Assembly: GCF_035084215.1 (NCBI RefSeq)
Contig: NW_027139666.1
Span: forward strand, 2,294,001 to 2,358,000
Reading direction: 5' to 3'
Source of the DNA: Heptranchias perlo
Lineage: Eukaryota
DNA: 64,000 bases
Shown here: positions 791 to 63,709 of the stretch, piece after piece
How positions within the stretch are numbered: the stretch's first letter is position 1
Layout of the letters: each line of letters begins with the position of its first letter
Made by a program: the position numbers and the translations under genes
The notes under the pieces: generated by a model
What the model was told of the DNA's origin: nothing
Seen by the model: the letters and a program-made list of their open reading frames with translations, nothing else
The model's database searches: none

Positions 791-1174
791 GTCTGACATC
801 GACTGGCCGTAAGCGAGACCTCGAACAGAGTGGAACAAATTCACATTGTCTGTCGTTACAGAAACAGGACAAAGTGCAATGTGAGGAAATAGTTTCTCTC
901 TTTAACTTCTACTCTGTTTTTTTAAAATATTTTGACAGTGAAAAATTAAGACAACTGACCCATAATAAAGTTTTTGTTTTGTTGATTCAAAAGTTGTGAA
1001 TTTGCCCCATTATATTTCACTGTACATTGCGCAATATTTCTGTCTGATTTCTCAGGACATGAATTAGATTAATTCAAATAAATCGAACTAAAACACAAAT
1101 AAAAACTGAGCACAAAGCTGGAAGTTTTAATGGCGACCGTCAAAAGTGAAAGGGATAAAATAGAGAGAAAAAAA

Positions 1175-1272
1175 TACCAAAAATGCTGGAAAGACTCAGC
1201 AGGTCCGGCAGCATATGTGGAGAAGGGAAGCTCGGGTTAACGGTTCAGGACTATGACCCTTCAATAGATCAG
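1175..1272 (-). mobile_element. Old Penelope-like terminal-repeat remnant with decayed hammerhead core (paralogues ~14798-14893, ~32048-32143)
   Basis: aaaatgctggaaagactcagcaggtccggcagcat...gttaacggttcagg..tgacccttc; minus strand of the 14.8k copy reads gaagggtca-t-tgacc-tgaaccgttaac, resembling a minimal hammerhead with mutated CUGANGA/GAAA; family assignment from recall, not a search. Confidence 0.5.
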
Positions 1273-1779
1273 AAAGGTTAATCCGGCATAGTTTAAATAA
1301 GGGACGGGAATCAGCAGAGAGAAAAAACTTCAGAAAATCTATTAATTTCACTGAATCCGGGCAATTGTTTCCCGTGTCCACTGTACAGATCAGTGTAAAT
1401 AATAATACAAAGGGAAAGAGTTAAATTCAAAGTTATGGTGGAAAGAAATGACCTTTCAAAGTATTTTAAAAATATAAATAAGACCCGTTTGTGTTTTGGA
1501 AACACTATCCCTCTGAACATCATCAAATTCGGTTCCAGTCTTGGTGATTCTGAATTCAGCGTGCTGGGATTCAAACCTGTTGGAATGAACTGTTTGGAAG
1601 GGAGCTCTGCTCACCATTATAGCGCCTTATTTCACTAGGAGGGAAAAATCGAGTGTTTCTGTGGAGTTTGGGTTTGGGGTTTCTGGTACTTTAATCATAG
1701 ACAATAAATAGTTTCCAAACATCAGCCCCTGAACAGACACAAAAAGCTGGTAGAATTTCTCATTCATAGATATTAAATA

Positions 1780-2440
1780 AGAGGATGGCAAAAGCGAATA
1801 GGAAGAGGTTAGGAAGAAGTCACAAAAACAATTAGGGAAGCAAACAGGAACTACGAAATCAAATTATCAAGGAATATAAAAAGAAATAGTAAATTATTCC
1901 ACAGACACAAAAATAACAAAAGGAAAACCAGAATAGTTTGAGTGCCACTAAGGGATGCACAAGATAAACTCACAGGTAATGTCAGCGAAATGGCAGAAAT
2001 ATTGAATTGTTACTTTGCCTCAGTATTTACCAGGGAGATTAACAGGGTAAATATGATATAGAGGAAGAGGTCAATAAAGATATCAAGACATTTAAGTTAG
2101 AAAGGGTGGTTAAACTGGTCCAGATGGATTGCATCCGCACATATTAAATGAAGCAAGGGAAGAGATAGCAGAGGCACTGTTACATATATAGAAAAAAAAT
2201 CATCACAAAAACGAATAGTGCCAAAGGGCAGGATGATAGTTAATGTGATTCATATATTTTGAAACAGGAGATAGAACAAGTCCAGGGAACTATAGGCCAG
2301 TTAACAAAAGGTCGGTGGTAGGAATGATCATGGAATCTTTTACTCAATGAAGCAATCGAAAAACATCTAGAAACCGAAAATATAATAAAGAATAGTCAGC
2401 ACGGATTTCAGAAAGGGAATGTTTAACAGTTTGACAGAAG
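1780..2440 (+). mobile_element. CR1-type LINE ORF2 fragment, degenerate (copies ~15395-16060, ~32665-33320)
   Basis: Translates to GPDGLHPHILNEAREEIAEAL, PGNYRPV and SQHGF motifs typical of CR1 RT; stops and frameshifts. Confidence 0.8.
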
Positions 2441-2449
2441 GTTTGAAAG

Positions 2450-2790
2450 TTTAAATTACAGTTCAACATAACTTATCTGCTTTTCAATTCTATTCCTCTA
2501 GAAATAAACCCCAGTGCTGTGTTTGCTTTCTGTGGCATCATCAACCTGTGTTGCTACTTTTAATGATTTGTCAATCTGTACCCCGAAATCCCTTCGCTCT
2601 TCTACCACATTTAGACTCTTATTTTCCAAGCAGTATGAGGCCTTCTTATTCCTGCGAGCAAAATGCACCATCTCACACCTTTCTATATTGAAATTCAATG
2701 GCCATTTCCACCGCCTTTCATCAAGCTTATTAAAGTCTTCTTGTATTTTGTTGGATTCTTCGTCAGTATAGACTATACACCCTAAATTAA
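2450..2790 (-). mobile_element. CR1-type LINE ORF2 fragment, inverted (copies ~16070-16255, ~28438-28600, ~33330-33670, ~44370-44502)
   Basis: ORF 2498-2698 FNIERCEMVHF...EERRDFGVQIDKSLK is CR1 RT C-terminal region. Confidence 0.8.
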
Positions 2791-2944
2791 TTACAAGAAT
2801 TTAATACAGCATGCAACCAACATTTGGTCCAACCAAATGTTTCCAATTCCCAGTTTTTCTAAATCCCACTCGTGCAACATAATGTGAAGAATGAGTTTAT
2901 CTTCTGTCCCTCTCTCACCTGCAAACTTCAATGTCCCGGGGTTT

Positions 2945-2976
2945 GGGGACATCTACTGGCCGAAAGCAGAACTGCA
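2945..2976 (-). promoter_or_regulatory. Putative bipartite CTCF site (upstream motif + core)
   Basis: Minus strand TGCAGTTCTGCTTTCGGCCAGTAGATGTCCCC; TGCAG starts 17 nt before a CCAGTAGATGTC core; conserved at 28781-28812, 33820-33851, 44133-44164. Confidence 0.6.
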
Positions 2977-3052
2977 ACAGTTCGGAACAAATTGCTCAAA
3001 CCGGACAATGTGCAGTGTGAGCGTGTTTGTGGTTGGTGGCAGGTATTAAATC

Positions 3053-3186
3053 TGATTGGTTTCTTCAGATATCCAATCAGAGAGTGAATGGAAAAGGTGA
3101 CGTTGTATCACTCCGAATGACCCAATCACAATCATTGCCTTCCTCCATCCCTCATTAGCATAGGGCTGTGGGGCTGCCTATTTCAT
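3053..3186 (+). promoter_or_regulatory. H2B promoter: CCAAT boxes, octamer-like H2B box CTCATTAGCATAG (3151-3163), TATA-like cctatttc
   Basis: gattgg/ccaatc motifs; one-mismatch match to CTCATTTGCATA directly upstream of the H2B ATG. Confidence 0.7.
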
Positions 3187-3238
3187 CCGAGTTCGGAGCG
3201 GATTTGGGTCATTTCTGGGTCTGAAATTGAGTTTGAAA

Positions 3239-3613
3239 ATGCCTGAGGACAAGAAAGCAGCTCCCAAGAAGGGCGCCAAGAAAACCTTGAATAAAGCACC
3301 AGCCAAGGGCGGCAAGAAGCGGAGAAAGTCGAGGAAGGAGAGTTACTCCATCTACATCTACAAAGTGATGAAGCAGGTTCACCCCGACACCGGCATCTCC
3401 TCCAAGGCCATGAGCATCATGAACTCCTTTGTGAACGATATTTTCGAGCGCATCGCTGGTGAGGCTTCCCGCCTGGCCCATTACAACAAGCGGGCGACCA
3501 TCAGCTCCCGGGAGATCCAGACCGCCGTGCGCCTGCTGCTGCCCGGGGAACTGGCCAAACACGCCGTATCGGAAGGGACGAAGGCGGTGACCAAGTACAC
3601 CAGCTCGAAGTAA
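3239..3613 (+). CDS. H2B: Histone H2B, replication-dependent, 124 aa
   Basis: [11 protein letters not shown]...[26 protein letters not shown]...AVTKYTSSK; intronless; followed by stem-loop. Confidence 0.97.
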
Positions 3614-3647
3614 AACTCCACAATGCACTGAAAAAAATGAACACAAC

Positions 3648-3663
3648 GGCTCTTTTAAGAGCC
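3648..3663 (+). terminator. Histone 3' stem-loop (H2B)
   Basis: GGCTCTTTTAAGAGCC followed by ACCCA. Confidence 0.95.
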
Positions 3664-4400
3664 ACCCACAGTCTCTCTGAAGACGCTGTACCGACCCCTC
3701 TGCATGGAATCATTTTACTGTAGAATGTTTGATACTAACTGTTTTTCTGTAACTCTTGTGCTTTTCTAATTTCTCTTGAAATCTAGTAGATTCTCGTCAT
3801 CACTGCCGGTTATAATCTGTGTGTTGCTTTTTTTATTTAGTCCCAATAACCAAAAACGTGTCACTGATCCTCTCGTTCTCGTTCATATTCCGACCCATCC
3901 GCCGCTACTGCCCATTAAGAGCCGTTTTAAGGGGGTGGATTAGACTTCAGTCATTTCTTTCTCCTTTTCACGTTTGTTTGTTCATTATTCGGGAATATCG
4001 CTATCAGAACCGCAATCCTTTGTAAAGCAACAGCCTTGAAAGAGACTTCACACCGAGTACAGAACAGTCTAAAGGATCTGTTACTGTTCGACTCCTGACA
4101 CCAGGAGTCCCGGCTCCGGTTTCGATCGCGATGCAGCTCCTGCGAACAGGGATCAATCCACAATCTGTCGTTTGTTCCTTTCACAAAGATTGAGCTGGAA
4201 TCTGTCTCGTTACAAAATGGGTCTTTATTCCCGCCCGATTGAAAATGAACGGTTAATGAAGCCGGATTTTAACCGGAATGTATAAGGTTCTGGAAGTTGT
4301 GACGGGAAATGTGGAACAACAGAGTAAAAGGAGAGAGATATTTAAATTTTTGTCTTTCGCGACATTATTTACTAAATCCGCTTCTTGTGTTACAGATATA

Positions 4401-5030
<630 letters not shown>

Positions 5031-5060
5031 ATCGGCCAAGATTTAACCTGATAACCCAAA

Positions 5061-5076
5061 GGCTCTTTTCAGAGCC
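5061..5076 (+). terminator. Histone 3' stem-loop (H2A)
   Basis: GGCTCTTTTCAGAGCC-ACCCA; HDE-like GAAAGGGCTG downstream. Confidence 0.95.
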
Positions 5077-5627
5077 ACCCACGGTATCAATGAAAGGGCT
5101 GGTCACTGTCTGTGGGCTCAGGTATTAACTTCAAAAGGACTTGATTCCGATTCGAGAAACTAACAATAACTTGTTATGCACAAATCATCCATATCGGTCT
5201 GTTGCAGTAATCGCTTCCGGACCGCAGATGTCGCCAACCTCCAATCGATTATAATTTGCAGTTTGTCTGGTGAATGAGACAAAATACCAGAACCGTTAGA
5301 ATTGCCAACTGGGCGGGTGGGATACAGAAATACCAGGGACGCTTAATATTATTTACCGTCCCATCCTCGGACAACACTGGCTCAGTCTGTGTTATTTTTC
5401 CCAGATTTGTACAACGGATGCTGACTGATGTGCTGTTATTGTATCAGCGATTACTGAATTAAGAATGTGAGTGAAATTTGTGTTTGGATGTGAGTGAGGT
5501 ATTTATTCTGTCCCTGTCCGTCTGATATCTGCTCCCTCCCCTTTATACGTTTCCCATTTAAGCAAATTTCTCACGACCCTGCCATTTCAACGCAGGAGAT
5601 CACAGCTCTTTCCATCGCCGATTTGGT

Positions 5628-5643
5628 GGCTCTGAAAAGAGCC
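5628..5643 (-). terminator. Histone 3' stem-loop (H3)
   Basis: Minus strand GGCTCTTTTCAGAGCC; U7-binding HDE GAAAGAGCTG at ~5603-5612. Confidence 0.95.
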
Positions 5644-5676
5644 TTTGTTGCACTTGGTGCTGAAGCCGGGTCGGGT

Positions 5677-6168
<492 letters not shown>

Positions 6169-6323
6169 TCAGGGTATCCGCCCCTGGCCTGTGATTGGCT
6201 GAGGTTTCACCCCCAGACAAGGAGGGACTGCGATTGGCAGGTTTGATCCGAGATCTGTCAGTCAGACCAAAACGGCGGGAGGTATTGGGTCCCAATTGGC
6301 TGAGCTGAAATTAATTTTCAATT

Positions 6324-6340
6324 TCAAAAAGCCCGCCAAT
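6324..6340 (-). promoter_or_regulatory. E2F/CDE-CHR composite upstream of H3 (second copy ~6548-6563)
   Basis: Minus strand TTGGCGG-GCTT-TTTGAA with exact 4-nt spacer; second copy CTGGCGG-GATT-TTTGAA. Confidence 0.6.
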
Positions 6341-6923
6341 TTCAGAGCATCAAATAAGTTTCAAGAAAATCTAATTTCCCTCCAGCAATTTAAGAATCTC
6401 TCTCTTCATAATCTCCATTATTTCCTTCTCCTCAGCTCAAATCTCAGGCTGTTTCACATTCCGATTCATTCTCTGATCTGTCTGTAAACGGGCGGGAATA
6501 AATTCCCGGTCATTGCTTTACGTAACGGGACAAAGTCCAGCTTCAATTTCAAAAATCCCGCCAGTTCCAGCCCGGTGAACCGCTCCTCAAACAGAAACTT
6601 CACATCGAACTGATAATTGAATGAGGGCAGGAAATAAACACCGAGCAGAGAGGACAGAGGGAGTGAGGAGGGATTTTAATTTGAGCGGAGAATGTAATGT
6701 CTGGGGAAAGACTCTATCACCGCCTGTTCATTTATACCGTGAAACCGGGAATTCCGCTCCTTCTCTCGGGATGGCCGAGAACCCCGGCCGTTGTTTCTGA
6801 TCTCCCTGTACCGAGTGTTGGGGAATCTCCCCATACTAATTAAATATCAGAAACTGATTCCCCACCCCGAGATCTTTCCTCTCCCCGTTCCCAGGTCAGT
6901 GCTCTCTCTGTGAGGCGGTGGGT

Positions 6924-6939
6924 GGCTCTTAGAAGAGCC
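6924..6939 (-). terminator. Histone 3' stem-loop (H4)
   Basis: Minus strand GGCTCTTCTAAGAGCC-ACCCA. Confidence 0.93.
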
Positions 6940-6974
6940 TTTGTTTTGTTTCCGGTTAGAAAGGGTCGAATTGT

Positions 6975-7295
<321 letters not shown>

Positions 7296-7390
7296 TCACT
7301 CAAATCGCTGCTGAATGAACAGCAAACTGATGTTGGTTCCGTTTTTATGCAGCCTGCCCTGACCTGACTGAAACACACACAGGGTGAGAG

Positions 7391-7507
7391 AGGGAGGGGA
7401 GGAGATAGAGATAAATATTAAACAGGGAGGGGAGGAGACAGAGTGTGATATTAAACAGGGAGGGGAGGAGACAGAGTGTGATATTAAACAGGGAGGGGAG
7501 GAGACAG
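7391..7507 (+). repeat. 33-bp purine-rich tandem repeat in H4 promoter (~3.5 copies)
   Basis: atattaaacagggaggggaggagacagagtgtg repeated; fewer units in the paralogue at ~16440-16495. Confidence 0.85.
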
Positions 7508-8165
7508 TCAGAGTGACGGACAAAGCGGAGAGCGGCTTCTGATCTTCCAGCTCCACCTCCAGCTTTCTCCACCCGCCAATTTCAAACCGTTTATCGATAA
7601 TAGAACCGAAACACAGCGCTCCGCACAAACCCTTACAGACTCGGGCTTCATAGAATCCCGGAGCTTTTCAATAAGCCCCATTACAATTAACAGTCAGCAA
7701 TATTCCTGCCAAAATACAGTCCCTTCCATAACAAGTCAACCCGCCTCCTTCCATTTCAGTCCCAGACCCGATTCTATCTCCCCGCACATTCCCTCCCAGA
7801 CGGGTTCAGCAGTTTATAAACACCTTATTCCAGCTGATTTGAAGAATCTCATGTGTTGGGGTTTGAATTGTGATCGCTGCCGATCTCCGCCAGTTTTACC
7901 CTGTTACGGACTGTCGCCCTGAATCTGTGAGAAAAAATGAACTGGGACTGGAGCCGAACACACGCCAGTTCCAGTGAGGCCCGGCCCGGATATCCCATTC
8001 TCTCTATTTTATTACAGACATTGGGGGTCGGGCGGGGATAGCGAATGTCAGCGAGTCACCAGGACCCTGGGTTTATTTGAAATGATTTCTATCTGAAATC
8101 TGAGCCCGGCCCCGGGACAGGAATCATCTGATTCCGGGATCAGCTCTTTTCTGAGAGACGTGGGT

Positions 8166-8181
8166 GGCTCTGAGAAGAGCC
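8166..8181 (-). terminator. Histone 3' stem-loop (H1)
   Basis: Minus strand GGCTCTTCTCAGAGCC-ACCCA; HDE AAAAGAGCTG at ~8141-8150. Confidence 0.93.
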
Positions 8182-8217
8182 GTTGGGTTCAGATGGTCAC
8201 AAGTTGCACTTGATTTT

Positions 8218-8835
8218 TTACTTCTTTTTGCCCGCTGCTTTCTTAGGCTTTGCTGACTTCGGCTTGGGCTTGGCCCTCGGTTTTTCCACCTTCTTCGCCT
8301 TCGCCTTAACTGGCTTGGGGGTCTTGGGCTTCTTAGCCGCCGCTTTCTTTTTAATTGGTGATTTCGCCGCCTTTTTCGTGGTCGATTTCTTGACCGCTGG
8401 TTTCTTGGCCGTTAACTTCTTGAGGGCTGTTTTTTTGGCCGCTGGTTTCTTTTCGGGAGATTTCTTGGTCACTTGTTTCTTCACCTTCTTTACCATTTTT
8501 GCCTGGGTTTCCTTCTTAGCGACTCTGAAGGAGCCCGAGGCGCCCGTGCCCTTGATCTGCACCAGGGAGCCTTTTTCCACATTTCTCTTGATACTTAATT
8601 TGATCTGGGACCGGTGCTTCTCCACATCCAGGCCTTTGGCAGCCAGAACCTTCTTTATCGCGGCCAGGGATATCCCCTTGCGATCCTTGCAATCCCCCAC
8701 AATCTTGAGGATCTGTTCGCCCAACGGGGGACCGGTGGTCTTGGGTCGGGGAACCGCCTTCTTCTTCTTCGGAGCCTTGGGTGGAGCGGCGGCGTCGGCA
8801 GGAGGAGCCGTTTCGGCGGCTGCAGTGTCTGTCAT
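8218..8835 (-). CDS. H1: Linker histone H1, 205 aa, divergent globular domain
   Basis: MTDTAAAETAPP...GISLAAIKKVLAAKGLDVEK...KGTGASGSF, Lys/Ala/Pro tail with SPxK/TPxK sites; H1-box AAACACA at 8980-8986 (minus); stem-loop. Confidence 0.95.
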   Translation of the reverse strand: MTDTAAAETAPPADAAAPPKAPKKKKAVPRPKTTGPPLGEQILKIVGDCKDRKGISLAAIKKVLAAKGLDVEKHRSQIKLSIKRNVEKGSLVQIKGTGASGSFRVAKKETQAKMVKKVKKQVTKKSPEKKPAAKKTALKKLTAKKPAVKKSTTKKAAKSPIKKKAAAKKPKTPKPVKAKAKKVEKPRAKPKPKSAKPKKAAGKKK

Positions 8836-11024
8836 GTCCGGGACTCTGTCGAAAATCTCTCTGACAGTCAGAGCTGGGTCAGAAATGAAACGAGAGGCGG
8901 CGGCACAGAGCAACTTAAAGGCACAGAGCGGACGGGGCGGAGACATCCTGCTGTCAGCTCCCGGCCCCTCCAGCCTCTCTGTGTTTCTCTCTCCTCTTAA
9001 ACTCCCCGATTCCAATTCAAATCGGGCACTCCAGAGTCCCAGACTAGCCCCTTCCTATATCTCACACCGGAATGTTTGCTGTCGAAAAACTTTCACCGGA
9101 ATTAAAAGCTCCAGTTTCGATTTAAACCAGTTTCATTGCTGCACTGATCGCGCTCTCTCACCCGATCGCTGACATGATCTCCGTTTTTCACCTGAAATCT
9201 TGAATTGATCTGAAATTTTACCTTAAATTTCCACTTCGGAGCTCGGCAGGGGAGGAGGGCGATCCTTTGACAGGGATTTTTTAAAATTTTACTCAAAAGG
9301 GACTCGGAAATCTGGCGATGAGACCGGCCACACAAACACAGTGACATTAATCTAACCCATCCGCCCCTTTAACACACTCTCTCTGACACAATGTTCACAT
9401 CTTCACATTCACAGGACAAAGTGTTCGCCAGATTGACAATTCCCGTGACAGGCTTTCCATCCCGCTCGGCCTGTGCTGCAGATTCTCGGAGGTGAGTTGT
9501 CGTTTCCCAGCTCAGTAACTGTTAAACACTCTGAGGCCGGCGCTCCTCACAGTGTCTTGTCCCCAGATTCAGGGGCAGCAGCCAATCACAGCTGTGGATG
9601 TGATTATCCATATCTTGTTTTACATGATTATATTATTCACACTCAGCAATATGTTTGGTTGAGACGATAATACAAATTCTCCTCTCTGGGCTCCTCCAGT
9701 CTCTCTGTCTTTCTCTCCCTCCTCCTAAACTGACTGACAGAAAACAGTAACTGGTGTTCTATCCGTCCCATTCTCAACACCCAGAGACGGCCAGTTGCTG
9801 AATAAATTCAACATTCATAGGCAGTCCAGTGTCAGGCCGTTACAGGCTGTTTCTCCCCACCTTTCCTTATTGGACTGGAGACTGATAAATGCACCGTCAG
9901 ACCGGCTCATACATAATAGAAGGGACAGTGACCGTCTCATCAACAGCACCGGAGGTCTGTTCACAGACACAGAATCAGTCTTTACCTTCCAACAGGGTGT
10001 TCATATTACGCTCAATAACACTATCCCGCTTTCATGTACAGCGCTGGAGGGAGAGAAATACAGACGGACAGATAAAGAGACAGACAGAGACAGGCACACA
10101 GACAAAGTATCATTCTCACACTTCCTCTCAGTGTGTCCGTTTCACACTCAGCAAACAGTATCCCACCTTCGTGTAAAGCGCTAGAGAGATACAGACAGGC
10201 AGAGTATCAGCCATACGCTTCCCATCAGTCTCTCTGTATCACGCTCAGCAGCAGTATTCCACCTTCATATGTTGTACATAAGAGAGAGAGAAACTGACCT
10301 GCAATGTCCCGTTTTCACCCAGTAACAAATTGGAAAATTCTCCATTCCAATTGCCATTCCAAGCTGGAGTGACGGAAGATGCAGTCTCATCTCTCACTGA
10401 TATTATTTCAGAGACAGACACATTATTAATCCCACTCTCAGTGACAGGGTCACGCATTTAACCCTCTCTTGAATGTTGTACCCTCTGCAATTTTGCAGCT
10501 CAGGGCCCTTCTGTATTTCTCTCAGTGACCGAGAGTTTCACTCCGATTGAAATAAACTGGGACTGTAGCCGTCAAATATTAATCCTACACGGTCCCAGCA
10601 AATACACCGACTCCCACTTTCCTCCCATGTTTCTCCAGAATTGGTTCGAGGAATCCGGCCTCCAGTTACGGAGTCACAAGTTTCTTTATCAGTAAAGGGA
10701 CCAAGAATGAACAGAACCAATTGGCTCATTTCACAGCCGCCCACTTTATCTCTGAAAGACTCTTTTCGATCAAAAGATACCGAGAGAAACAGCAGGGATG
10801 GAAACATCTAGTTTAATAGTAAGAGATTGTAAAGTCAGTCTGGATTCCAGCGTTAGGCACTGGTGGAATCCCATTTGTTTTCCATTCTGGTGCCTGTTCC
10901 TGCACTGCCTGTGGACCCCATTCCCTCTGACCTTTCCCCCAGACCCACTTCCTTTGCTCAGACTCTGAAAAATTCCAATTGGGGAAAGTTTCCATCGATT
11001 TTTGTATTGAGAATTAAACCAGAT

Positions 11025-11160
11025 TTCTGCGCATGCGCGACTCAGCCCCGCCCCCAGCGCTGGTTGTTGGTGAGCGGAAGAGCGCATGCGCTCTCCCCTC
11101 CCCCAGCTGGGCCTGTGGGCACCATTCCCTCAGTGAGCGGAAGAAGATGGTTTAAAACAG
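11025..11160 (+). promoter_or_regulatory. CpG-rich TATA-less promoter-like element of an unknown transcription unit (copies ~20645-20780 +, ~49785-49915 -)
   Basis: Two NRF1-type GCGCATGCGC motifs, GC box ccccgccc, ETS-like gcggaag x2, gaagatgg. Confidence 0.55.
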
Positions 11161-11508
11161 CCGGGAATGGAGAGATCACGGCCCCCGGGGGAAGGGAGCA
11201 AAGAGCAGCCTCGTTACAGCAGCTCATCGCTTCGGGACCGTGTCCGCAGATGGGCTCAGAGATCGGCATTGAGTCCGAGGGCTGTTTGTAAGAGGCGGAG
11301 TGGATCAGGAACTGGTCCCGGAACATGGAGTGAGCGGGGGAAGGGAGAGGTCATTCTCGGGCTGTGTGTGTACAGGGTGTGTCCAGGGGAAGGGAGACAG
11401 AATGGGAATAACCTGCTATTTAAAATCATTGCTGCTTTCTCTCCCCAAACCAGTAGTGAATGTTCCTGGTTTAGTTCCAGTCTCACCCTGTTTATTGTTA
11501 TTGGACAG

Positions 11509-12182
11509 TGAAGAGTGGAAACAGAGCCGGACAGTAAGGATGTGGGGAGTGAGACAAAGAGCATCTATTGCAGGCACCAGGTGAGAAGTGTGAAGGGCAC
11601 ATTTTAAACAGCGGCTGTTTGATTTCGGTTGAACGGTTAGTCCCATGGGAGAGGGGATTAGAAACCTGACGTGTGCAAAGGTCCCCGCCCCATCGGGTCG
11701 TCCCATTCATGGATCAGTGCAGAGGTTGGGTTGTGTCTGGATGTCACTAAATCGTTGTAAAATTGCCCAACACACCTGGTGTGCAGAAGCTGAGTGCTGC
11801 AGTACTGCAGTGGAGTCAGACACTGACACTGTTTGTATCACTGGTTCTCATTTGTGGATATTCAAAATAATCATTGATATGGATATTAATTCGAACACTT
11901 TTGTATTTTCTACCTCACTGGTTCTTGAGTTACAAGAGATAAATTTCTTCCTGCAGGCAAATCCTTGATGGACCCAGAATCAGTGTTATGTTTCCTCCAC
12001 TCGAGGCACAAGGAACAGTGCAGCCAGCTCCTTCTCTCACACAGTGAGTACATTATCACACACAGCGCACAGAGACACAGACAGGTCATCAGTTCCACAG
12101 TCTCAGACAGCAGAAGTCGTCAGTCCCACACTGATCCCAAGATCCAGAGACACATTTTCAATCCAACAGTCAAACAGAGCAG
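11509..12182 (+). other. Putative exons 2 (11509-11580, 72 nt) and 3 (11957-12182, 226 nt) of an unknown spliced gene, copy 1
   Basis: Acceptors ttattggacag| and ttcttcctgcag|, donors cag|gtgaga and cag|gtgagg, conserved across paralogues. Confidence 0.45.
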
Positions 12183-12879
12183 GTGAGGCAGACACTGTTC
12201 CATTTCCCCCGAGCTGAGTCCCGCTGACAGGTGGATACAAAAATCCCAGTCCAAGATCACACTATCAGATGGAAAGGCACTGTGTCAATCTCACAATAGG
12301 GCAACATTAGCTACGAATTAAATACCAGATCGAAATCACACATGGTACCCGATTTAAAGGTGCAGAATGAATCCCAATAATGTACCCTGAGATTCGAATT
12401 GATTACTCGCCCAGAACTCTCACACACATGTGAGTTTATACACTATGCGAATGGATATTGCATGTATCATGTGATACAAATTGCATACGAGTCCAAAACT
12501 CATGTACAGTATCAGATTAAAAATGCTGTGAGAGTGTAATCTGAGAAACAAATTAGATATCAGTTTATAATGGACTCATATTGTGAGATGTAACGATACA
12601 GTATCAATTCTATTAGTACAGACTGAGCTGTACATTATACGCCATTTGAAAAGTGTCACCATATCAATTTGAAAGATACATTATCTTTCACAATAGTACT
12701 CACAGAGATACAGATTTAATAGTAGTTCAAAAAGCACACAAATTATCTGATTAAAACCTACAGTGTCAAATCCTAAAGTGTATCCACATTTACCAATTAA
12801 ATAATGAGAAATATGATCGAAACATGAAGATATTAAAGCTAAAATTTTTTATGCCGTAATGCAATCTGAGAGAATAATT

Positions 12880-14420
12880 ACATACAGATACAGAATGAAT
12901 CTCACACTCAGATATAGTACCAGAGACTGACAGATGCAGAAGGAATCCCAAACTCACATACAATAATAGAGACTGACAGACACAGAGCGAATCCTACACT
13001 CACATATGGTACCAGAGATGACAGATATCGAATGAATCCCACACTGGCATACAGTACCAAGGGCTGATAGATATCTAGTTAATTACTCACTCTCATAAAG
13101 TACTAGAGACTGACAGAAAGATAATGACTCCCACATTCACACAGTACCAGAGCCTGAGAGATACAGAATGAATCACACACTCACACACAGTACCAGCGAC
13201 TGACAGATAGAGAATGCATCCCACACCAACATGCAGTCTGAGAGGCTGCATATACAGAAAGAATTCAACACCCACATACAACACTGGAGACTGAAAGACA
13301 CAGAATAAACCCCACACTCACAGTATCAGAGACTGCATATATAGATTAAATCGCAAACTCACACACACTACTGACAAGATACAGAATGAATCCGACACTG
13401 ACAAACTGTTCCAGATACTGAGAGATACAAAATGAATCACACATTAGTGCAGGCTGAGTAACATTATTTACCAGTCCAAGAAGTATCAGATTGAAAAATA
13501 CAGTATCAATTCCATTAGTGCAGACTGATCTACACATTATATACCACTACAAAAACTGATGCAGATTCAGACTGAAATATACAGTATTCCATTCATGCAG
13601 ACTGAGCTACACATCATATACTAGTTCAAAAATGTCACCATATCAGTTTGGAAGATAAACTAATTCACAATTGTGTTCCCATCGATACAGATTTAATAGT
13701 AGTCCAAAAAGTGCCCACATTCTCTGAATATATTCTAAAGCATTTCATTATCAACCAATTAAACACTGGGAAAAATATGCATTCATTGAGGTATTAAAGA
13801 TAAAGTTTTGAACACCATACTGTAAACGGAGATACAAATTACATACAGATAAGGAATGAATCTCACACTCAGATAGAGGGCCAGAGAGTGACACACAGAA
13901 TGAAACCAGCACTCACACAATGTAACAGTGACTGACAGATACTGAATGTATCTCAAATTCACAGACAGTATCAGAGACTGACAGATACAGAATGAATCCC
14001 AAACTCACACACAGTACCAGAGAGTGACAGATACAGAATGAATCTCACACTCACATACAGTACCAGAGAATGACAGATACAGAATGAATCTCACACTCAC
14101 ATACAGTACCAGAGTCTGACAGATACAGAATGAAACCCACACTCACATGCAGCACCAGAGACTGACAGATACAGAATGAATCCCACACTCACACACAGTA
14201 CCAGAGACTGACAGATACAGAATTAATCCCACACTCACAGACTGTACTGGAGACTGACGGATACAGAATTAATATCACACTCACAGATAGCACCAGAGAG
14301 TGACAGATACAGAATGAATCCCGCACTCACAGACTGTACTGGAGACGGACCGATAAAGAATGAATATCACACTCAAATGCTGACTGACAGACAGAATTAA
14401 TCCCACACTCTCATACAGTC
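12880..14420 (+). repeat. 46-bp satellite arrays (12880-13440, 13840-14420) with intervening ~82-bp units
   Basis: Visible tandem units of the same consensus as 340-790. Confidence 0.85.
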
Positions 14421-17841: not shown

Positions 17842-18477
17842 TTACTTCTTTTTGCCCGCTGCTTTCTTTGGCTTTGCTGACTTCGGCTTGGGCTTGGCCC
17901 TCGCTTTTTCTACCTTCTTCGCCTTCACCGGCTTGGGGGTCTTGGGCTTCTTAGCCGCCGCTTTCTTCTTAATTGGTGATTTCGCCGCCTTTTTCGTGGT
18001 CGATTTCTTGGCAACAGGTTTCTTGACCGCTGATTTCTTGGCGGCCGGTTTCTTGGCCGTTAATTTCTTGACCGCTGTTTTTTTGGTCGCTGGTTTCTTT
18101 CCGGGAGATTTCTTGGTCACTTGTTTCTTCACCTTCTTTCCCACTTTTGCCTGGGTTTCCGTCTTAGCGACTCTGAAGGAGCCCGAGGCGCCCGTGCCCT
18201 TGATCTGCACCAGGGAGCCTTTTTCCACATTTCTCTTGATACTTAATTTAATCTGGGAACGCTGCTTCTCCACATCCAGGCCTTTGGCAGCCAGAACCTT
18301 CTTTATCGCGGCCAGGGATATCCCCTTGCGATCCTTGCAATCCGCCACAATCTTGAGGATCTGTTCGCCCAACGGGGGACCGGTGGGTCGGGGAACCGCC
18401 TTCTTCTTATTCGGAGCATTGGTTCGAGCGGCGGCGGCGGGAGGAGGAGCCGTTTCGGCGGTTGCAGTGTCTGTCAT
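17842..18477 (-). CDS. H1: Linker histone H1 copy 2, 211 aa
   Basis: Intact paralogue of 8218-8835 with in-frame indels in both tails; promoter and stem-loop retained. Confidence 0.93.
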   Translation of the reverse strand: MTDTATAETAPPPAAAARTNAPNKKKAVPRPTGPPLGEQILKIVADCKDRKGISLAAIKKVLAAKGLDVEKQRSQIKLSIKRNVEKGSLVQIKGTGASGSFRVAKTETQAKVGKKVKKQVTKKSPGKKPATKKTAVKKLTAKKPAAKKSAVKKPVAKKSTTKKAAKSPIKKKAAAKKPKTPKPVKAKKVEKARAKPKPKSAKPKKAAGKKK

Positions 18478-20466: not shown

Positions 20467-20575
20467 TCTGAGAGTGATAATATACATACTGTGTGTGAGA
20501 AGGAGTTGGCTGCACTGTTCCTTTGTCTCGGGGGGAGGAAACTTCACATTCATTCTGGACCCTTCTCGGATTTGC
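20467..20575 (-). other. Inverted templated insertion copied from the 21592-21700 exon sequence
   Basis: Near-exact reverse complement of 21592-21700; replaces ~16 nt present at ~10937-10952 in the paralogue. Confidence 0.85.
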
Positions 20576-20784
20576 TCAGACTCTGAAAAATTCCAATTGT
20601 GGAAAGTTTCCATCGATTTTTGTGTTGGTAATTAAACCAGATATCTGCGCATGCGTGACCCAGCCCCGCCCCCAGCGCTGATTGTTGGTGAGCAGAAGAG
20701 CGCATGCGCGCTCCCCTCCCCCAGCTCGGCCTGTGGGCGCCATTCCCTCAGTGAGCGGAAGAAGATGGTTTAAAACAGCCGGGA

Positions 20785-21816
20785 ATGGAGAGATCACGGC
20801 CCCCGGGGGAAGGGAGCAAAGAGCAGCCTCGTTACAGCAGCTCATCGCTTCGGGACCGTGTCCGCAGATGGGCTCAGAGATCGGCATTGAGTCCAGGGTA
20901 AGGGCAGGGGAGTCCGGGGTCTGTTTGTAAGAGGCGGAGTGGATCAGGATCTGGTCCCGGAACATGGAGTGAGCGGGGGAAGGGAGAGTTCATTCTCGGG
21001 CTGTGTGTGTACAGGGTGTGTCCAGGGGAAGGGAGAGAGAATGGGAAGAACGTGCTATTTAAAACCATTGCTGTTTTCTCTCCCCAAACCAGTAGTGAAT
21101 GGTCCTGGTTTAGTTCCTATCTCACCCTGTTTATTGTTATTGGACAGTGAAGAGTGGAAACAGAGCCGGACAGTAAGGATGTGGGGAGTTATGCAAAGAG
21201 CATCTATTGAAAGCACCAGGTGAGAAGTGTGAAGGACACATTTCAAACAGCGGCTCTTTGCTTTCTTTTGAACGGTTAGTCCCATGGGAGAGGGGATTAG
21301 AAACCCGACCTGTACAAAGGGCCCTGCCCCATAGGGTAGTCCCATTCATGGATCAGTGCAGGGGTTGCATTTTGTCTGGATGTCACTAAATTGTTCTAAA
21401 ACAGCCTAACACACCTGGTATGCTGAAGCTGAGTGCTGCAGTACTGCAGTCGAGTCAGACACTGACACTGTATCACTGGTTTTCATTTGTCGAAGCACAA
21501 AATAATTATTAACAGAGCTATTAAACTGATCACTTTTGTATTTTCTACCTCACCTGTTATTGAGTAACAAGAGATAATTTTCTTTCTACAGGCAAATCCG
21601 AGAATGATCCAGAATGAATGTGAAGTTTCCTCCCCCCGAGACAAAGGAACAGTGCAGCCAACTCCTTCTCTCACACAGTAGGTATATTATCACTCTCAGA
21701 GCACAGAGACACAGACAGGTCATCAGTTCCACAGTCTCAGACAGCAGAAGTAGTCAGTTCCACACTGATCTCAAGTTCCAGAGACACATTTTCAATCCAA
21801 CAGTCAAACAGAGCAG
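20785..21816 (+). pseudogene. Putative three-exon unknown gene, copy 2 (20785-20897, 21148-21219, 21592-21816); in-frame stop early in exon 3
   Basis: ATG, gg|gtaagg donor, 72-nt and 225-nt symmetric phase-2 exons; product not recognised. Confidence 0.4.
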
Positions 21817-22449
21817 GTGAGGCAGACGCTGTTCCATTGCACCCGAACTCAGTCCCGCTGACAGGAAGATACAAAAATCCCAGTCCAAGATCACACTATC
21901 AGATTGTCAATTTCCAAGAAGTGCAGCATTCGCCATGAATTAAAAACCAGATACCCCGAGATTCCAATTGAATACTAGCCCAGAACCCTCACACCCACAC
22001 GGGAGTTTAATACATGCAGTATCCATTCGAATAGTGTACCATTCGAATACAAATTGCAAGTCCAAAAATCATGTACAATATCAGATTGAGAAATGCTGTG
22101 ACAGTGTAACCTGAGAAACAAATTAGATACCAGTTTATAATATACTCATAGCATGAGATTTAAAGATACAGTATCAATTCCTTTACTGCAGGCTGATCGA
22201 CACATTATATACCAATTCAAAAATGTCACCATATCAGTTTGAAAGAAATATTATCATTCACAATAGTACTCACAGAGATACTGATATGATACTCGTCCAA
22301 AAAACACAAATCTTCTGATTAAAACCTCCAGCATCAAATCCTAAAGTGTATCCATGTTTACCAATTAAATACTGGGAAAAAACTGTTTAAACATTAAGAT
22401 CGTAAAGCTACAGTATTGAACACCATAATGTAATCTGAGAGAATAATTA

Positions 22450-23380
22450 TATACAGATACAGAATGAATCTCACACTCAGATACAGTACAGAGACACACA
22501 AACACAGAATGAATCCCACACTCACATACAGTACTAGAGTTTGCCAGACACAGATTGAATCCAACACTCAAGTATGGTGCTAGAGATGTCAGATACAGAA
22601 TGTATCACACACTGACATACAGTACCAAGGACTGAAAGATAGCAAAACCATCCCACACTCTCATAAAGCACTAGAGACTGAGAGATACAAAATAAATCCC
22701 AAACTCAAACACAGTACCTGAGATTGGCAGATACAGAATGAAGACCACACTCACGTACAGTACCACAGTCTGACAGAGTACAGAATGAATCTCACACTCA
22801 CACACAGTACTCGAGACTGACAGATACAGACTGAATCCCACACTCACACACAGTACCTGAGATTGGCAGATACAGAATGAATCTCACACACAGTACCTGA
22901 GTTTGGCAGAGACAGAATGAATCTCACACTCATACACAATACCAGAGACTGACAGATACAGAATGAATCCCACACTCACACACAGTACCTGAGATTGGCA
23001 GATGCAGAATGAATCTCACACACAGCACCAGAGACTGACAGATACAGAATGAATCCCACACTCACACACAGTGCCAGAGACTGAGAGATACAGAATGAAT
23101 GCCACACTCACACGCAGTACCTGAGATTGGCAGATACAGAATTAATCTCACACTCACACACAGTACCAGAGACTGACAGATACAGTATGAATCTCACACC
23201 AACATACATTATGAGAAACTGGATATATGGAAATAATTCAACACCCACACACAGTACTAGAGAATGGAAATGCAGAATGAATCCCACAGTCAAATAGAGT
23301 ACCAGAGAGTGACAGTTACAGCATGAATCCCACACTCACAGTCAGTACCAGAGACTGAGAGATACAAAATGAATCTCAGA
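22450..23380 (+). repeat. 46-bp satellite array
   Basis: ~20 visible units. Confidence 0.9.
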
Positions 23381-23389
23381 GTCACCTAC

Positions 23390-24000
23390 ATTAGTGCAGG
23401 CTGAGTTACACATTACGTACCAGAGCAAAAATCTCACAGTCGCAGATCGAAAGATACCTCATCAATTCCATCAATGCTGTCTTAGTTACACATTACATAC
23501 CAGTCCAAAAATCTCATAGTGTCAGATTTAAAGGTGCAGTATCAATTCTATTAGCGCAGACTGAGCTACATATTAGATATATTGGTAAATACTCATGGAG
23601 TATTATACTGAAATAAACAGTATCAATACCATTGGTACAGACTGAACTACACATTACATACGAGTCCAAAAACCTCATAAATGATCAGACTGGAAAATAG
23701 AGTTTCAATTCTATTAGCACTGCCTGAGCTGTACATTACATACCAGACTGGAAATCCCATAAAATATTAGACTAAAAGATGTAGTATCGATTTCATGAGT
23801 GCAGACTAAGCCACACATTATATAGCAGTCCAAGAATCTCATACCTTATCAGACTCAAAGATACAATATCAATTCCATTAGCACAGACTGAGCTACATGT
23901 TACACACCAGTCCAAAAATCTCATACAGTTTAGACTGAGATACAGAATTAATCCCATTATTGCAGAATAAACTAAACATTACATAAGGGTCCAATAATTT
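23390..24000 (+). repeat. ~82-bp satellite (cagactgaaagatacagtatcaattccattagtgcagactgagctacacattacataccagtccaaaaatctcatacagtat)
   Basis: Degenerate tandem units. Confidence 0.75.
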
Positions 24001-24129
24001 CACCGGGAACAGATTGAAAGGTACATTATCATTCACAATAAAGTTCATGGATTAAGATGTAATACTACTCCAAAACTCACACACATTGTTTGATTAAAGA
24101 AAATTGAAAAGTGCTTCCATATTAACAAA

Positions 24130-27100
24130 TTAAATACTCGATGAATAACTGTATATAATTTAAAGTATTAAATCTACAGTTTCAAAAAAGATACTGTAAA
24201 CTGAAATAAGAACACCGAATGAATCCAGACTTGCACATTGTCTCAGAGACTGAATTACAGAATGAATCCCACACTGAGATAAAGTAGCAGAGAATGGCAG
24301 ATACAGAATGAATCCCACACACACAGATAGCACCAGAGACTGACAGATACAGAATGAATCCATCACTTATATGTAATACCCCTGAGACTGAGAGATGCAG
24401 AATATACCCCATGCTCACACTCAGTACCAGAGACTGACAGATATAGAATGAATCCTACACTCACATACAGTATCCGGAACAGAATGAATCTCACTCGCGC
24501 ACAGTACCAGGGACTGACAGATACAGAATGAATCTCTCACTCAAAAAGTACCAGAGACTGACGGATACAGAATGAATGTCACAGTCACATTACTGCAGAC
24601 TGAGTTACACTTTACAGACCAGTCCAAAGATCTCATAGTATCAGCTTGAAAGATAAAGTATAAATTCCATTAGTGCAGACTGAGCTACATATTAGATATA
24701 TTGGTAAATACTCAGTATTATACAGATATAAATATTATAAATACCATTGGTGCAGACTGAGCTACACATTACATACGAGTCCAAAAATCACATAAATGAT
24801 CAGACTGAAAGATATAGTTTAAATTCTTTTAGCACCGCCTGAGCTAAACATTATATAACAGTCCAACAATCTCATACAATGTTAGACTGAAAGGTACAGT
24901 ATCGATTTCATTAGTGCAGACTGAGCCACACATTATATAGCAATCCAAGAATCTCATACCTTATCAGACTCAAAGACATAATATCAATTCCTTTAGCACA
25001 GACTGAACTACATGTTACTCACCAGTCCAAAAACTTCATACAGTATAAGACTGATAGATACAGTATCAATTCCTTTAGTGCAGGATGAGCTACATATTAC
25101 ATATCGTGTCCAAAAATCACATGTCGTGTTAGACTCAGATACAGAATTAATCCCATTATTGCAGACTGAGCTACTCATTACATACCAGTCCAATAATTTC
25201 ACCGGGAACAGATTGAAACGTACATTATCATTCACAATACAGTTCAGAGATTAAGATATAATACTGCTCCAAAACTCTCACACATTGTTTGAATAAAGAA
25301 AATCGAAAAATGTATCCATATTAACAACGTAAATAATCGACGAAGAACTATATATAATTTAAAGCATTAAAGATACAGTTTCAAATACGATACTGTAAAC
25401 TGAAATAAGAATACAGAATGAATCCAGACTTGCACATTGTCTCAGAGACTGAATTACAGAATGAATCCCACACTGAGATAAAGTAGCAGAGAATGGCAGA
25501 TACAGAATGAATCCCACACACACAGACAGCACCAGAGACTGACAGATACAGAATGAATCCATCACTTATATGTAATACCCCTGAGACTGAGAGATGCAGA
25601 ATATACCCCATGCTCACACTCAGTACCAGAGACTGATAGATATAGAATGAATCCTACACTCACATACAGTATCCGGAACAGAATGAATCTCACTCGCGCA
25701 CAGTACCAGGGACTGACAGATACAGAATGAATCTCTCACTCAAAAAGTACCAGAGACTGACGGATACAGAATGAATGTCACAGTCACATTACTGCAGACT
25801 GAGTTACACTTTACAGACCAGTCCAAAGATCTCATAGTATCAGATTGAAAGATAAAGTATAAATTCCATTAGTGCAGACTGAGCTACATATTAGATATAT
25901 TGGTAAATACTCAGTATTATACAGATATAAATATTATCAATACCATTGGTGCAGACTGAGCTACACATTACATACGAGTCCAAAAATCACATAAATGATC
26001 AGACTGAAAGATATAGTTTAAATTCTTTTAGCACCGCCTGAGCTAAACATTATATAACAGTCCAACAATCTCATACAATGTTAGACTGAAAGGTACAGTA
26101 TCGATTTCATTAGTGCAGACTGAGCCACACATTATATAGCAATCCAAGAATCTCATACCTTATCAGACTCAAAGACATAATATCAATTCCTTTAGCACAG
26201 ACTGAACTACATGTTACTCACCAGTCCAAAAACTTCATACAGTATAAGACTGATAGATACAGTATCAATTCCTTTAGTGCAGGATGAGCTACATATTACA
26301 TATCGTGTCCAAAAATCACATGTCGTGTTAGACTCAGATACAGAATTAATCCCATTATTGCAGACTGAGCTACTCATTACATACCAGTCCAATAATTTCA
26401 CCGGGAACAGATTGAAACGTACATTATCATTCACAATACAGTTCAGAGATTAAGATATAATACTGCTCCAAAACTCTCACACATTGTTTGAATAAAGAAA
26501 ATCGAAAAATGTATCCATATTAACAACGTAAATAATCGACGAAGAACTATATATAATTTAAAGCATTAAAGATACAGTTTCAAATACGATACTGTAAACT
26601 GAAATAAGAATACAGAATGAATCCAGACTTGCACATTGTCTCAGAGACTGAATTACAGAATGAATCCCACACTGAGATAAAGTAGCAGAGAATGGCAGAT
26701 ACAGAATGAATCCCACACACACAGATAGCACCAGAGACTGACAGATACAGAATTAATCCATCACTTATTTGTAATACCCCTGAGACTGAGAGATGCAGAA
26801 TATACCCCATGCTCACACTCAGTACCAGAGACTGACAGATATAGAATGAATCCTACACTCACATACAGTATCCGGAACAGAATGAATCTCACTCGCGCAC
26901 AGTACCAGGGACTGACAGATACAGAATGAATCTCTCACTCAAAAAGTACCAGAGACTGACGGATACAGAATGAATGTCACAGTCACATTACTGCAGACTG
27001 AGTTACACTTTACAGACCAGTCCAAAGATCTCATAGTATCAGATTGAAAGATAAAGTATAAATTCCATTAGTGCAGACTGAGCTACATATTAGATATATT

Positions 27101-27950
27101 GGTAAATACTCAGTATTATACAGATATAAATATTATAAATACCATTGGTGCAGACTGAGCTACACATTACATACGAGTCCAAAAATCACATAAATGATCA
27201 GACTGAAAGATATAGTTTAAATTCTTTTAGCACCGCCTGAGCTAAACATTATATAACAGTCCAACAATCTCATACAATGTTAGACTGAAAGGTACAGTAT
27301 CGATTTCATTAGTGCAGACTGAGCCACACATTATATAGCAATCCAAGAATCTCATACCTTATCAGACTCAAAGACATAATTTCAATTCCATTAGCACAGA
27401 CTGAACTACATGTTACTCACCAGTCCAAAAACTTCATACAGTATAAGACTGATAGATACAGTATCAATTCCTTTAGTGCAGGATGAGCTACATATTACAT
27501 ATCGTGTCCAAAAATCACATGTCGTGTTAGACTCAGATACAGAATTAATCCCATTATTGCAGACTGAGTACTCATTACATACCAGTCCAATAATTTCACC
27601 GGGAACAGATTGAAACGTACATTATCATTCACAATACAGTTCAGAGATTAAGATATAATACTGCTCCAAAACTCTCACACATTGTTTGAATAAAGAAAAT
27701 CGAAAAATGTATCCATATTAACAACGTAAATAATCGACGAAGAACTATATATAATTTAAAGCATTAAAGATACAGTTTCAAATACGATACTGTAAACTGA
27801 AATAAGAATACAGAATGAATCCAGACTTGCACATTGTCTCAGAGACTGAATGACAGAATGAATCCCACACTGAGATAAAGTAGCAGAGAATGGCAGATAC
27901 AGAATGAATCCCACACTCACATACAGCACCAGAAAATGACAGATACAGAA
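24130..27950 (+). repeat. 1199-bp higher-order tandem repeat, ~3.2 near-identical copies
   Basis: tatccggaac at 24471, 25670, 26869; matching ORFs at 25012, 26211, 27410. Confidence 0.95.
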
Positions 27951-28559
27951 ATAATCCCACACTCACATAAAGTACCAGAGACTGACAGATACAGAATGAA
28001 TCCATCACTTATATATAGTACCTGAGACTGAAAGATGCAGAACATACCCCATGCTCACACTCAGTACCAGAGATTGACAGATACTGAATGAATCCCAAAC
28101 TCACGCACAGTACCAGAGACTGACAATGACAGAATCAACCCCACTCTCATGTACAGTGCTAGAGATGACATCTACTGGCCGTAAGCGAGTACTGTAATGA
28201 GGGAACAAATTCACATTATCTGTCGTGGTCACAGAAACAGGATAATGTGCAATGTGATGGAAGTTTCGGTCTGCAACTTTTACTCTCGTATTTTTGCACT
28301 TTTTGACGGTGAAAAATGAAGACAATTGATTCATAATAAAGTTTTTGTTTCACTCATTCGATAGTTGTGAATTTACCCCATTGTATTTCGCTTTACATTG
28401 CGAAGTATTTCTCGCTGATATCTCAGGATGATTTACATTGCTCCTCTACCCCATTTAGACTCTTATTTTCCATGCAGTATGTGGCCTCCTTATTCCCCCG
28501 AGCGAAATGCACCACCTCACACTTTTCTATATTGAAATTCAATGGCCATTTGCACGGCC

Positions 28560-28895: not shown

Positions 28896-29949
28896 TTAAA
28901 CCTGCCCATTAACCTTTAGTGTTTGTTATTGAACAGTAAACAGAGCCGGACAGTAAGGATATGGGGAGTTATACAAAGAGCATCTATTGCAGGCATCAGG
29001 TGAGAAGTGTGAAGGTCACATTTTAAACAGCGGCTGTTTTGTTTCGGTTGAACAGTTAGTCCCATGAGAAAGGGGAGTAGAAATCTGAAATGTACAAAGG
29101 CTCCTGCCCAATCGGGTAGACCCATTCATGGATCAGTGCAGGGGTTGGGTTGTGTCTGGATGTCACTAAATTGTAAAATTGCCCAACACACCTGGTGTGC
29201 AGAAGCTGAGTGCTGCAGTACTGCAGTGGAATCAGACACTGACACTGTTTGTATCGCTGTTTTTCCTTTGTGGATATTACAATGATTATTAACAGAGAGA
29301 TTCAATTGATCACTTTTGGTTTTTTCTACCTCACCTGTTCTTGAGTTACAAGAGACAGTTTTTTTTCCATCAGTCAATTCGTTGAAGGACCCAGAATCAG
29401 TGTGATGTTTACTCCACCCGAGGCACAAGGAGCAGTCAGTGCAGCCAGCTCCTTCTCACACACAGTATGTACATTAACACTCAGAGCATAGAGACACAGA
29501 CAGGTCATCAGTTCCACATTCTCAGATAGCAGAAATGGTCAATACCACACTGATCCCAATCCAACAGTCAAACAGAGCAGGAGAGACAGACGGAATTTCT
29601 ATTTCACAATGACTCAGTACCGCTGACTGGCAAATAAATAATTCCCAGTCCAAAATCACACCCAGTTTCAGATTGAAAGGCACTGTTTCAATTCTCACAT
29701 TATTTCAGCCTTAGCTACAAATTAAATACCAGATAGAACTGACACATGGTACTGATTGATAGATACAGAGTGAATAACAATAGTGTACTCCAAGATTAAA
29801 ATTAAATACCAGCCCTCAATTCACACACATTTTGAGTTTAAAGGTGCAGTATTCATGCCAATAGTGCACCCTGAGATACAAATTAGATACCAATTCAGAT
29901 GTTACCCATATTTGACTCACATATATGTTCAAAAACCTCATGGTGTCAG

Positions 29950-34112: not shown

Positions 34113-34528
<416 letters not shown>

Positions 34529-63705: not shown

Positions 63706-63709
63706 GGTT

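Follow-up and report, generated by a model that had tools for sequence, protein, structure and literature searches.

The non-histone members of histone repeat units that are listed in the text of a review of histone genes (PMC13525598) are rRNA genes. 5S genes accompany the histone repeat in Artemia and Mytilus, the rRNA cistron does so in the boll weevil, and both do in Potamopyrgus; the unit sizes given there range from 3.7 to 13 kb. The same text describes a head-to-head H2A-H2B pair as common in vertebrates and mentions repeat units in newt histone clusters that lie among satellite DNA; sharks are unmentioned in that text and in two supplementary files. According to PMC2114352, newt satellite 2 is transcribed by read-through. 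Among elasmobranchs, the Squalomix preprint (bioRxiv 10.1101/2025.06.08.657570) reports histone and tRNA gene clusters together in a ray. There was no report of a spliced gene as part of the histone repeat of a shark in the literature that we searched, which was mostly outside subscription journals and bioRxiv supplements.

We analyzed a 64,000-nucleotide window of the Heptranchias perlo genome (contig NW_027139666.1, positions 2,294,001 to 2,358,000 of the forward strand; positions below count from its first letter). The window covers a histone cluster: H2B, H2A, H3, H4, and H1 genes are present, together with a zinc-finger gene near 60 kb. The H2B protein encoded at 3239 is represented in the public protein collection, in a cluster of 29 members; of the 15 members listed, the 14 with a name are from Heptranchias perlo. 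Comparing the window with itself gave the unit order H2B>H2A><H3<H4<H1>gene X, in which gene X is the spliced gene discussed here. We favor, with a probability of about 0.55, the reading that gene X is a captured housekeeping-type promoter plus exons, amplified with the unit, that gives rise to a heterogeneous spliced lncRNA acting, if at all, in cis. Self-comparison also showed that only one unit in the 64-kb window is complete (786-14412); the remaining units are deletion derivatives. The features that define the unit are the following.

786..14412, no single strand: reference repeat unit of ~13.6 kb, consisting of spacer, H2B (+), H2A (+), H3 (-), H4 (-), H1 (-), gene X (+), and 82-bp and 46-bp minisatellite arrays
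17842..18477, minus strand: H1 gene, head-to-head with the 21k copy of gene X (ATG to ATG, 2308 bp)
22110..28150, plus strand: minisatellite arrays of 82-bp and 46-bp repeats, immediately 3' of exon 3, containing a 1199-bp higher-order repeat

Gene X and H1 are head-to-head in both units that retain H1; the ATG-to-ATG distance is 2332 bp in the 11k unit. H2B and H2A are in tandem in the complete unit, H3, H4, and H1 are on the opposite strand, and there is no head-to-head H2A-H2B pair. The 82-bp and 46-bp arrays form the 1199-bp higher-order repeat at 23388-27851, three copies of which are >99% identical, a very recent expansion.

Several other observations describe the setting. Two H2B copies (34094-34530 and 43360-43875) and one H2A copy (42100-42529) are broken by an insertion or duplication, which in the H2A copy is a 29-bp tandem duplication at 42458-42518. 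These three broken copies place this part of the cluster in decay; they mark its birth-and-death edge. The insertion that breaks the H2B copy at 43875 includes 99 bp (43767-43865) that are 100% identical to 17103-17201, an insert in the second unit, and the shared stretch is a recent short mobile or templated insertion. A weak tRNA match at 54060-54131 (41.5 bits), with weak similarity near 1563-1621, 15175-15233, and 32434-32492 in the unit spacer, probably represents a SINE of tRNA origin that travels with the unit. The zinc-finger gene (56400-61061) encodes 12 C2H2 fingers and has an apparent CpG-promoter first exon at ~56430-56540 and a terminal-exon acceptor at ~59632, with 47-, 39-, and 63-bp repeats between the two exons; its exact protein is absent from the public protein collection that we searched. 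At 63084-63750 there is a GC-rich 22-bp tandem repeat with CpG and several open frames, probably a minisatellite.

The original prediction had described five full or partial copies of gene X, at about 11k, 21k, 29k, 41k, and 49k, and all five were found. Each lies in unit-homologous context and runs into the same downstream unit sequence; the copies arose by unit duplication and deletion. The copies other than the 21k copy, and an inverted piece beside the latter, are as follows.

10953..12330, plus strand: 11k copy, belonging to the one histone unit that is complete in the window; first donor gone (21-nt deletion)
28920..29840, plus strand: 29k copy, limited to exons 2 and 3, fused on their 5' side to H2B-upstream sequence
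40778..41199, minus strand: 41k copy, exon 3 plus ~55 nt of acceptor only, downstream of the broken H2B and H2A
48400..50587, minus strand: 49k copy, promoter and three exons; H1 gene deleted
20467..20575, minus strand: inverted 109-nt copy of the 21k exon-3 start, private to the 21k copy, replacing ~16 bp

The copies are damaged differently, as had been claimed, but the 11k copy retains an unbroken 130-codon open reading frame (ORF) (11167-11329 plus 11957-12186) when the next donor, 11329, which is equivalent to 20968, is used. Its 21-nt deletion of the first donor lies between GAGTCC repeats. The 29k copy has 9-nt and 21-nt deletions and a 4-nt insertion and has lost the 21816-type donor; in the 49k copy the first donor has changed from GT to GG and exon 2 contains a stop. 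The two partial copies (28920 and 41190) start ~17 and ~55 nt upstream of a splice acceptor; the acceptors outlasted the deletions, a post hoc observation. The inverted piece has GGG where exon 3 of the 21k copy has TGA, as the original prediction stated. It is identical at 105 of 109 positions to its own 21k exon 3, versus 89/110, 90/110, and 97/109 for three other copies, and neither the 11k nor the 49k copy has it; therefore, it is probably a local template-switch insertion. We rejected the idea that it is an independent gene copy, since it most resembles exon 3 of the unit in which it lies and occurs beside the 21k copy alone. The 21k copy itself looks like a decaying member of the family (longest ORF of 66 codons, private alleles). 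Its structure is given below.

20640..20784, plus strand: CpG-island promoter and 5' leader, with GCGCATGCG at 20647 and 20700, a GC box at 20664, and GCGGAAG/GGAAG at 20755
20785..20897, plus strand: exon 1 counted from its ATG, 113 nt up to the first donor; joined to 21148 and to 21155 in run X6
20898..20968, plus strand: exon-1 extension to the alternative donor GA/GTGAGC; joined to 21592 in run X1
21148..21219, plus strand: exon 2, 72 nt, flanked by AG and GT; an alternative acceptor (21155) is located 7 nt into the exon
21592..21677, plus strand: exon 3, short form, 86 nt in the 21k copy (11k and 49k copies, 87 nt); one contig joins its donor backward to an exon-3 acceptor
21592..21816, plus strand: exon 3, long form (the one originally predicted), 225 nt; consensus donor at 21816 in four of five copies
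21939..21944, plus strand: ATTAAA hexamer, a candidate poly(A) signal, 345 to 360 nt past the exon-3 acceptor in all five copies

The CpG-rich promoter, its two palindromes, the GC box, and the gcggaag motif were all where the original prediction had put them. We take the palindromes at 20647 and 20700 to be NRF1-type sites, the GC box to be Sp1-type, and the GGAAG at 20755 to be ETS-type. The CpG observed/expected ratio is 0.75, and the GC content 62%, over 20640-20900, versus a ratio of 0.24 over 21148-21816. The leader contains an alternative donor after 20750 and a two-codon upstream ORF at 20765. Also as predicted, there is an ATG at 20785 and a phase-2 donor (GG/GTAAGG) after 20897, and we could reproduce the spliced reading, which in the 21k copy stops after 66 codons. 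Exons 2 and 3 have the predicted lengths (72 and 225 nt) and canonical splice sites. However, exon 3, said to be symmetric, is so in only two of the five copies: measured to the 21816-type donor, two copies have 225 nt, two have 226 nt, and one has 207 nt. The second exon-3 donor (21677) reads GTAGGT in the 21k copy, GTGAGT in the 11k copy, GTATGT in the 29k and 41k copies, and GGAAGT in the 49k copy; it was coded from the alignment of the copies before the public contigs were aligned. No partner exon for the 21816 donor was found within the unit. The folding of exon-1 RNA is ordinary (z = -0.25).

Nine public runs from three studies share 0.11 to 0.31 of the words searched; none of them is recorded as RNA, and their type was guessed as such. 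Four of these (X1, X2, X5, and X6, of which X5 has a library label that reads RNA-Seq) were aligned as contigs at 80% likeness. With the run type so guessed, 6 of the 15 listed joints, in contigs from three of the four runs, fall at exon boundaries with GT and AG. The chance that a random joint would do so is ~0.005 (0.5%), and the agreement is therefore more than chance. Run X6 has the joints 20897 to 21148 and 20897 to 21155; these came out of the alignment as 20894 to 21147 and 20894 to 21154 with GG between, which we read as an A-to-G change at 20895. Run X2 joins exon 2 to exon 3 (21219 to 21592), and run X1 has the joints 20968 to 21592 and 20750 to 21592 and, in one contig, 21677 back to 21592. 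In addition, X6 loose ends have exon-3 letters directly behind 20898 and 21220, corresponding to exon 1 joined to exon 3 and exon 2 joined to exon 3. Run X5 has no joint, and one of its contigs is unspliced across 20665-21009. The joint from 21677 to 21592 is as compatible with a back-splice (circular RNA) as with a forward splice from one tandem exon-3 copy to another; exon-3 copies are in tandem in the order 11k, 21k, 29k on the plus strand and 49k, 41k on the minus strand.

The other 9 of the 15 listed joints are noncanonical, and 8 of these are at or beyond 21757, toward the repeat arrays. In four of the six exon-boundary joints the shorter side spans <30 letters; the joints were read without a silent control stretch. 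The donor at 21816 has no joint and no well-supported loose end among those listed, which does not indicate disuse. Summed contig depth climbs steeply at ~20750-20830 and drops past ~21900; note that the contigs carry no transcript ends, strand, or level, so that depth is uninformative on starts, ends, and levels. One X6 contig has a 1-nt deletion in exon 1. An X2 contig on 20576-20826 enters, past 20816, a second copy of the exon-1 start, which suggests a paralog in which the ATG region is tandemly repeated.

At the 37 best-supported sites of the aligned span that differ from the 21k copy, the contig letter was that of the 11k copy in 27 of 36 cases, the 29k copy in 19 of 24, the 49k copy in 23 of 37, and the 41k copy in 3 of 4; this table holds differences from the 21k copy only, and in most of its rows no contig carries the 21k letter. 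Because the contig letters are mostly not those of the 21k copy, the contigs are derived from further members of the family or from related species. Splicing is thus supported for the gene X family, and the contigs are not assignable to the 21k copy. For the family, and on the guessed run type, there are transcripts of >200 nt with canonical splicing. The prediction of a spliced gene inside the histone unit is borne out by the copies, which are unit duplications, and by contig joints that match introns 1 and 2; of the junctions at which reads had been proposed as a check, 20897/21148 and 21219/21592 were seen in the contigs, with the same proviso about run type.

We compared the 11k and 21k units, which differ at 337 of 4,173 sites. 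Their longest identical run, 149 bp (11122-11269), is the start region and exon 1 of gene X, and the second longest, 147 bp (8851-8997), is the leader and promoter of H1. Between the H1 coding sequences of the two units (201 codons), there are 17 residue differences and 11 synonymous ones. Across the three copies that have exon 1, 1 of 103 columns is variable, versus 37 of 443 in the flanks (Fisher P = 0.003); a window permutation gave P = 0.057 against the near flanks and P = 0.0004 over 2 kb, where rates are uneven. The signal in the promoter and exon 1 is at the nucleotide level and includes noncoding bases. The exon-1 identity could instead be due to gene conversion, an alternative raised by the 99-bp exact match between 17103-17201 and 43767-43865, which shows that short exact copying occurs here.

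The original prediction allowed a small protein or a lncRNA. The main rival reading, which we consider less likely, is that gene X encodes a lineage-specific small protein, made from intact units elsewhere. The protein would be read from the strong-context ATG through exons of 113, 72, and 87 nt, possibly with several 87-nt modules from successive exon-3 copies, or from the 130-codon two-exon frame of the 11k copy. In its favor, the 87-nt allele of short exon 3 gives exons that are all phase 2 and open, forming one in-frame chain whose chance under shuffling is ~2 to 3% (0.015 to 0.026, post hoc), and because of this shorter chain through donor 21677 the small-protein reading stays alive. The frame of the chain is preserved by four contig-supported joints, and at the exon-3 start of the X6 loose ends the only two visible differences are synonymous in it (by eye). 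The near invariance of exon 1 and the unbroken 11k frame also speak for a protein. On the other side, three contig-supported joints (20897 to 21155, 20968 to 21592, and 20750 to 21592) break the ATG frame or skip the ATG, so that there are four in-frame and three out-of-frame junction types, which contig depth cannot rank. The exon-1 differences among copies are both nonsynonymous, with no synonymous variation, and the 130-codon frame meets a stop in three of five copies, at a codon for which only the 11k/49k pair has TTA.

The composite ~136-amino-acid (aa) product first proposed is not supported. Its ORF is intact across three exons in none of the five copies: the 21k copy has a stop, the 11k and 49k copies lack the first donor, and the 29k and 41k copies lack exon 1. 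Exon 3 at 40912-41136 is, as had been stated, fully open in the predicted frame. Comparing rates among the copies, a check suggested with the prediction, gave a dN/dS of 0.93 in that ORF (50 nonsynonymous and 16 synonymous changes, with the mutation spectrum taken from introns), which is evidence against the protein; the copies are all at the decaying edge of the cluster, and therefore neutrality among them says little about an intact parent. By part, dN/dS was 1.29 for exon 2 and 1.82 and 0.57 for two parts of exon 3, none of them significant (the lowest P, 0.094, was for 0.57). ORFs in the 12 isoforms that we modeled for the 21k copy have 38 to 66 codons.

No protein relatives were found in the searches that we made. 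Pfam gave no family for eight gene X translations, versus 35 matches for the zinc-finger control; the original prediction, too, had recognized no domain. The 114-aa unspliced ORF of the 11k copy had no match among 1.84 billion representatives, and three word-index protein searches gave 3 candidates with none scored, 110 candidates with none scored, and no candidate. These protein searches are weak, since the queries were short and three of the six forward exon-frame options were covered; the collection includes RefSeq histones from this shark group. The ESM Atlas gave no usable match for two queries, which counts neither way. A metagenome scan with a 22-nt exon-1 pattern found a single locus, which we rejected as a chance match inside a bacterial gene without further similarity. 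For structured RNAs, Rfam at its gathering threshold found only eight histone stem-loops and the one tRNA-like match in the whole window, with no snoRNA, snRNA, or rRNA; an E-value scan of 10400-14500 gave two subthreshold matches and no snoRNA in the gene X introns.

We consider it quite unlikely that the unit holds only the 5' end of a longer gene, whose coding exons would be at a parent locus or far downstream (e.g., the zinc-finger terminal exon, from 59632 on) and for which exons 1 to 3 would be leader or N-terminal sequence. Such a gene would account for a strong consensus donor at 21816 that is kept in four of five copies with no partner exon in the unit, and the window's zinc-finger gene seems, by eye, to be built in this way, as a CpG-promoter first exon plus one distant coding exon. 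That the X2 contig turns into different sequence past 20816 would also fit. However, gene X has no similarity to the 5' region of the zinc-finger gene, the listed loose ends include no well-supported one at 21816, all five copies have the candidate poly(A) hexamer behind exon 3, and the searches for longer proteins were blank.

We think it very improbable that gene X is the remnant of a transposon, or sequence associated with the satellites, that is cryptically spliced, or that the joints derive from DNA (processed copies) or from repeat misassembly, because, although the run type was guessed, most joints off splice sites are in repeat arrays, and the DNA just 3' of exon 3 grades into the 82-bp repeat, the five copies have no independent insertion sites or unrelated flanks, six joints are on exact GT/AG boundaries, one of them at a donor chosen before contig alignment, and the CpG promoter and first exon are preserved as well as the H1 promoter.

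A spliced lncRNA from a captured promoter thus remains our preferred reading. We favor it over the ~136-aa protein because of the dN/dS of 0.93, the off-frame exon 3 in three of five copies, the frame-breaking joints, the lack of a joint at 21816, and the blank searches. Gene X would be a real multicopy RNA polymerase II (Pol II) transcription unit and the sixth member of the shark histone repeat. We infer that a housekeeping-type CpG promoter and first exons were captured beside H1 before the quintet was amplified. Transcription would be directed away from H1 into the minisatellites and probably onward into the next unit; a transcript would either stop near the ATTAAA or continue into that unit, and short exon 3 could be spliced to the following unit's exon 3. 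Constraint or homogenization would act on the DNA of the start site and exon 1, not on codons. The likeliest role would be in cis, a steady poly(A)-type transcription that holds the CpG islands of the array open, and the RNA itself, with its short ORF, would probably be prone to decay. Gene X may already be among the RefSeq noncoding models as an uncharacterized locus.

A bolder proposal, which we judge unlikely, is that in hexanchiform sharks the quintet has a sixth fixed member, a Pol II gene that is expressed and under constraint, and that the transcript of this gene spans successive units, splices out entire histone sets, and strings together in-frame 87-nt exons. The product would be either a modular, lineage-specific small protein whose dose follows the number of histone copies or an RNA with an architectural function at the histone locus.

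If the reading that we prefer is true, constant poly(A)-type transcription, sense to H2B and H2A and antisense to H3, H4, and H1 of the next unit, enters a locus that is specialized for intronless, stem-loop-ended mRNAs. Gene X would then allow one to ask, in a natural setting, whether transcription of a passenger contributes to the openness of histone arrays or is a mere hitchhiker. Should it be only a decaying hitchhiker lncRNA, its value is modest and mainly descriptive.

Genes that host snoRNAs, such as GAS5 and the SNHG genes, have a housekeeping promoter, a short first ORF, many splice forms, and poorly conserved exons. Gene X resembles them in promoter type, short first ORF, many alternative splice forms, and poorly conserved exons, but, unlike them, it has introns in which Rfam finds no snoRNA, and it is multicopy through duplication of the histone unit. 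In newts, transcription from histone clusters reportedly reads through into satellite 1. As in the newt clusters mentioned in the review's text, this is a vertebrate histone locus with tandem repeats between units that are probably transcribed from upstream promoters; in contrast to histone-gene read-through, gene X has a CpG promoter of its own, its exons are canonical, and it is directed away from H1. The cluster is also like the elasmobranch histone and tRNA cluster in being a large histone cluster of a cartilaginous fish that shares its region with other proliferating genes; what the main text of that preprint (bioRxiv 10.1101/2025.06.08.657570) describes is co-occurrence with tRNA genes, with no spliced gene inside the unit, and the term "lncRNA" occurs there zero times. 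As in the histone quintets that carry rRNA genes, gene X is a non-histone part of the repeated unit and was amplified with it, to five copies in the window. The passengers known from the review's text are structural RNAs made by Pol I or Pol III, whereas gene X has introns, is Pol II-type, lacks an Rfam match, and is in a vertebrate. A spliced Pol II gene within a vertebrate histone quintet, if true, would be a new kind of passenger.
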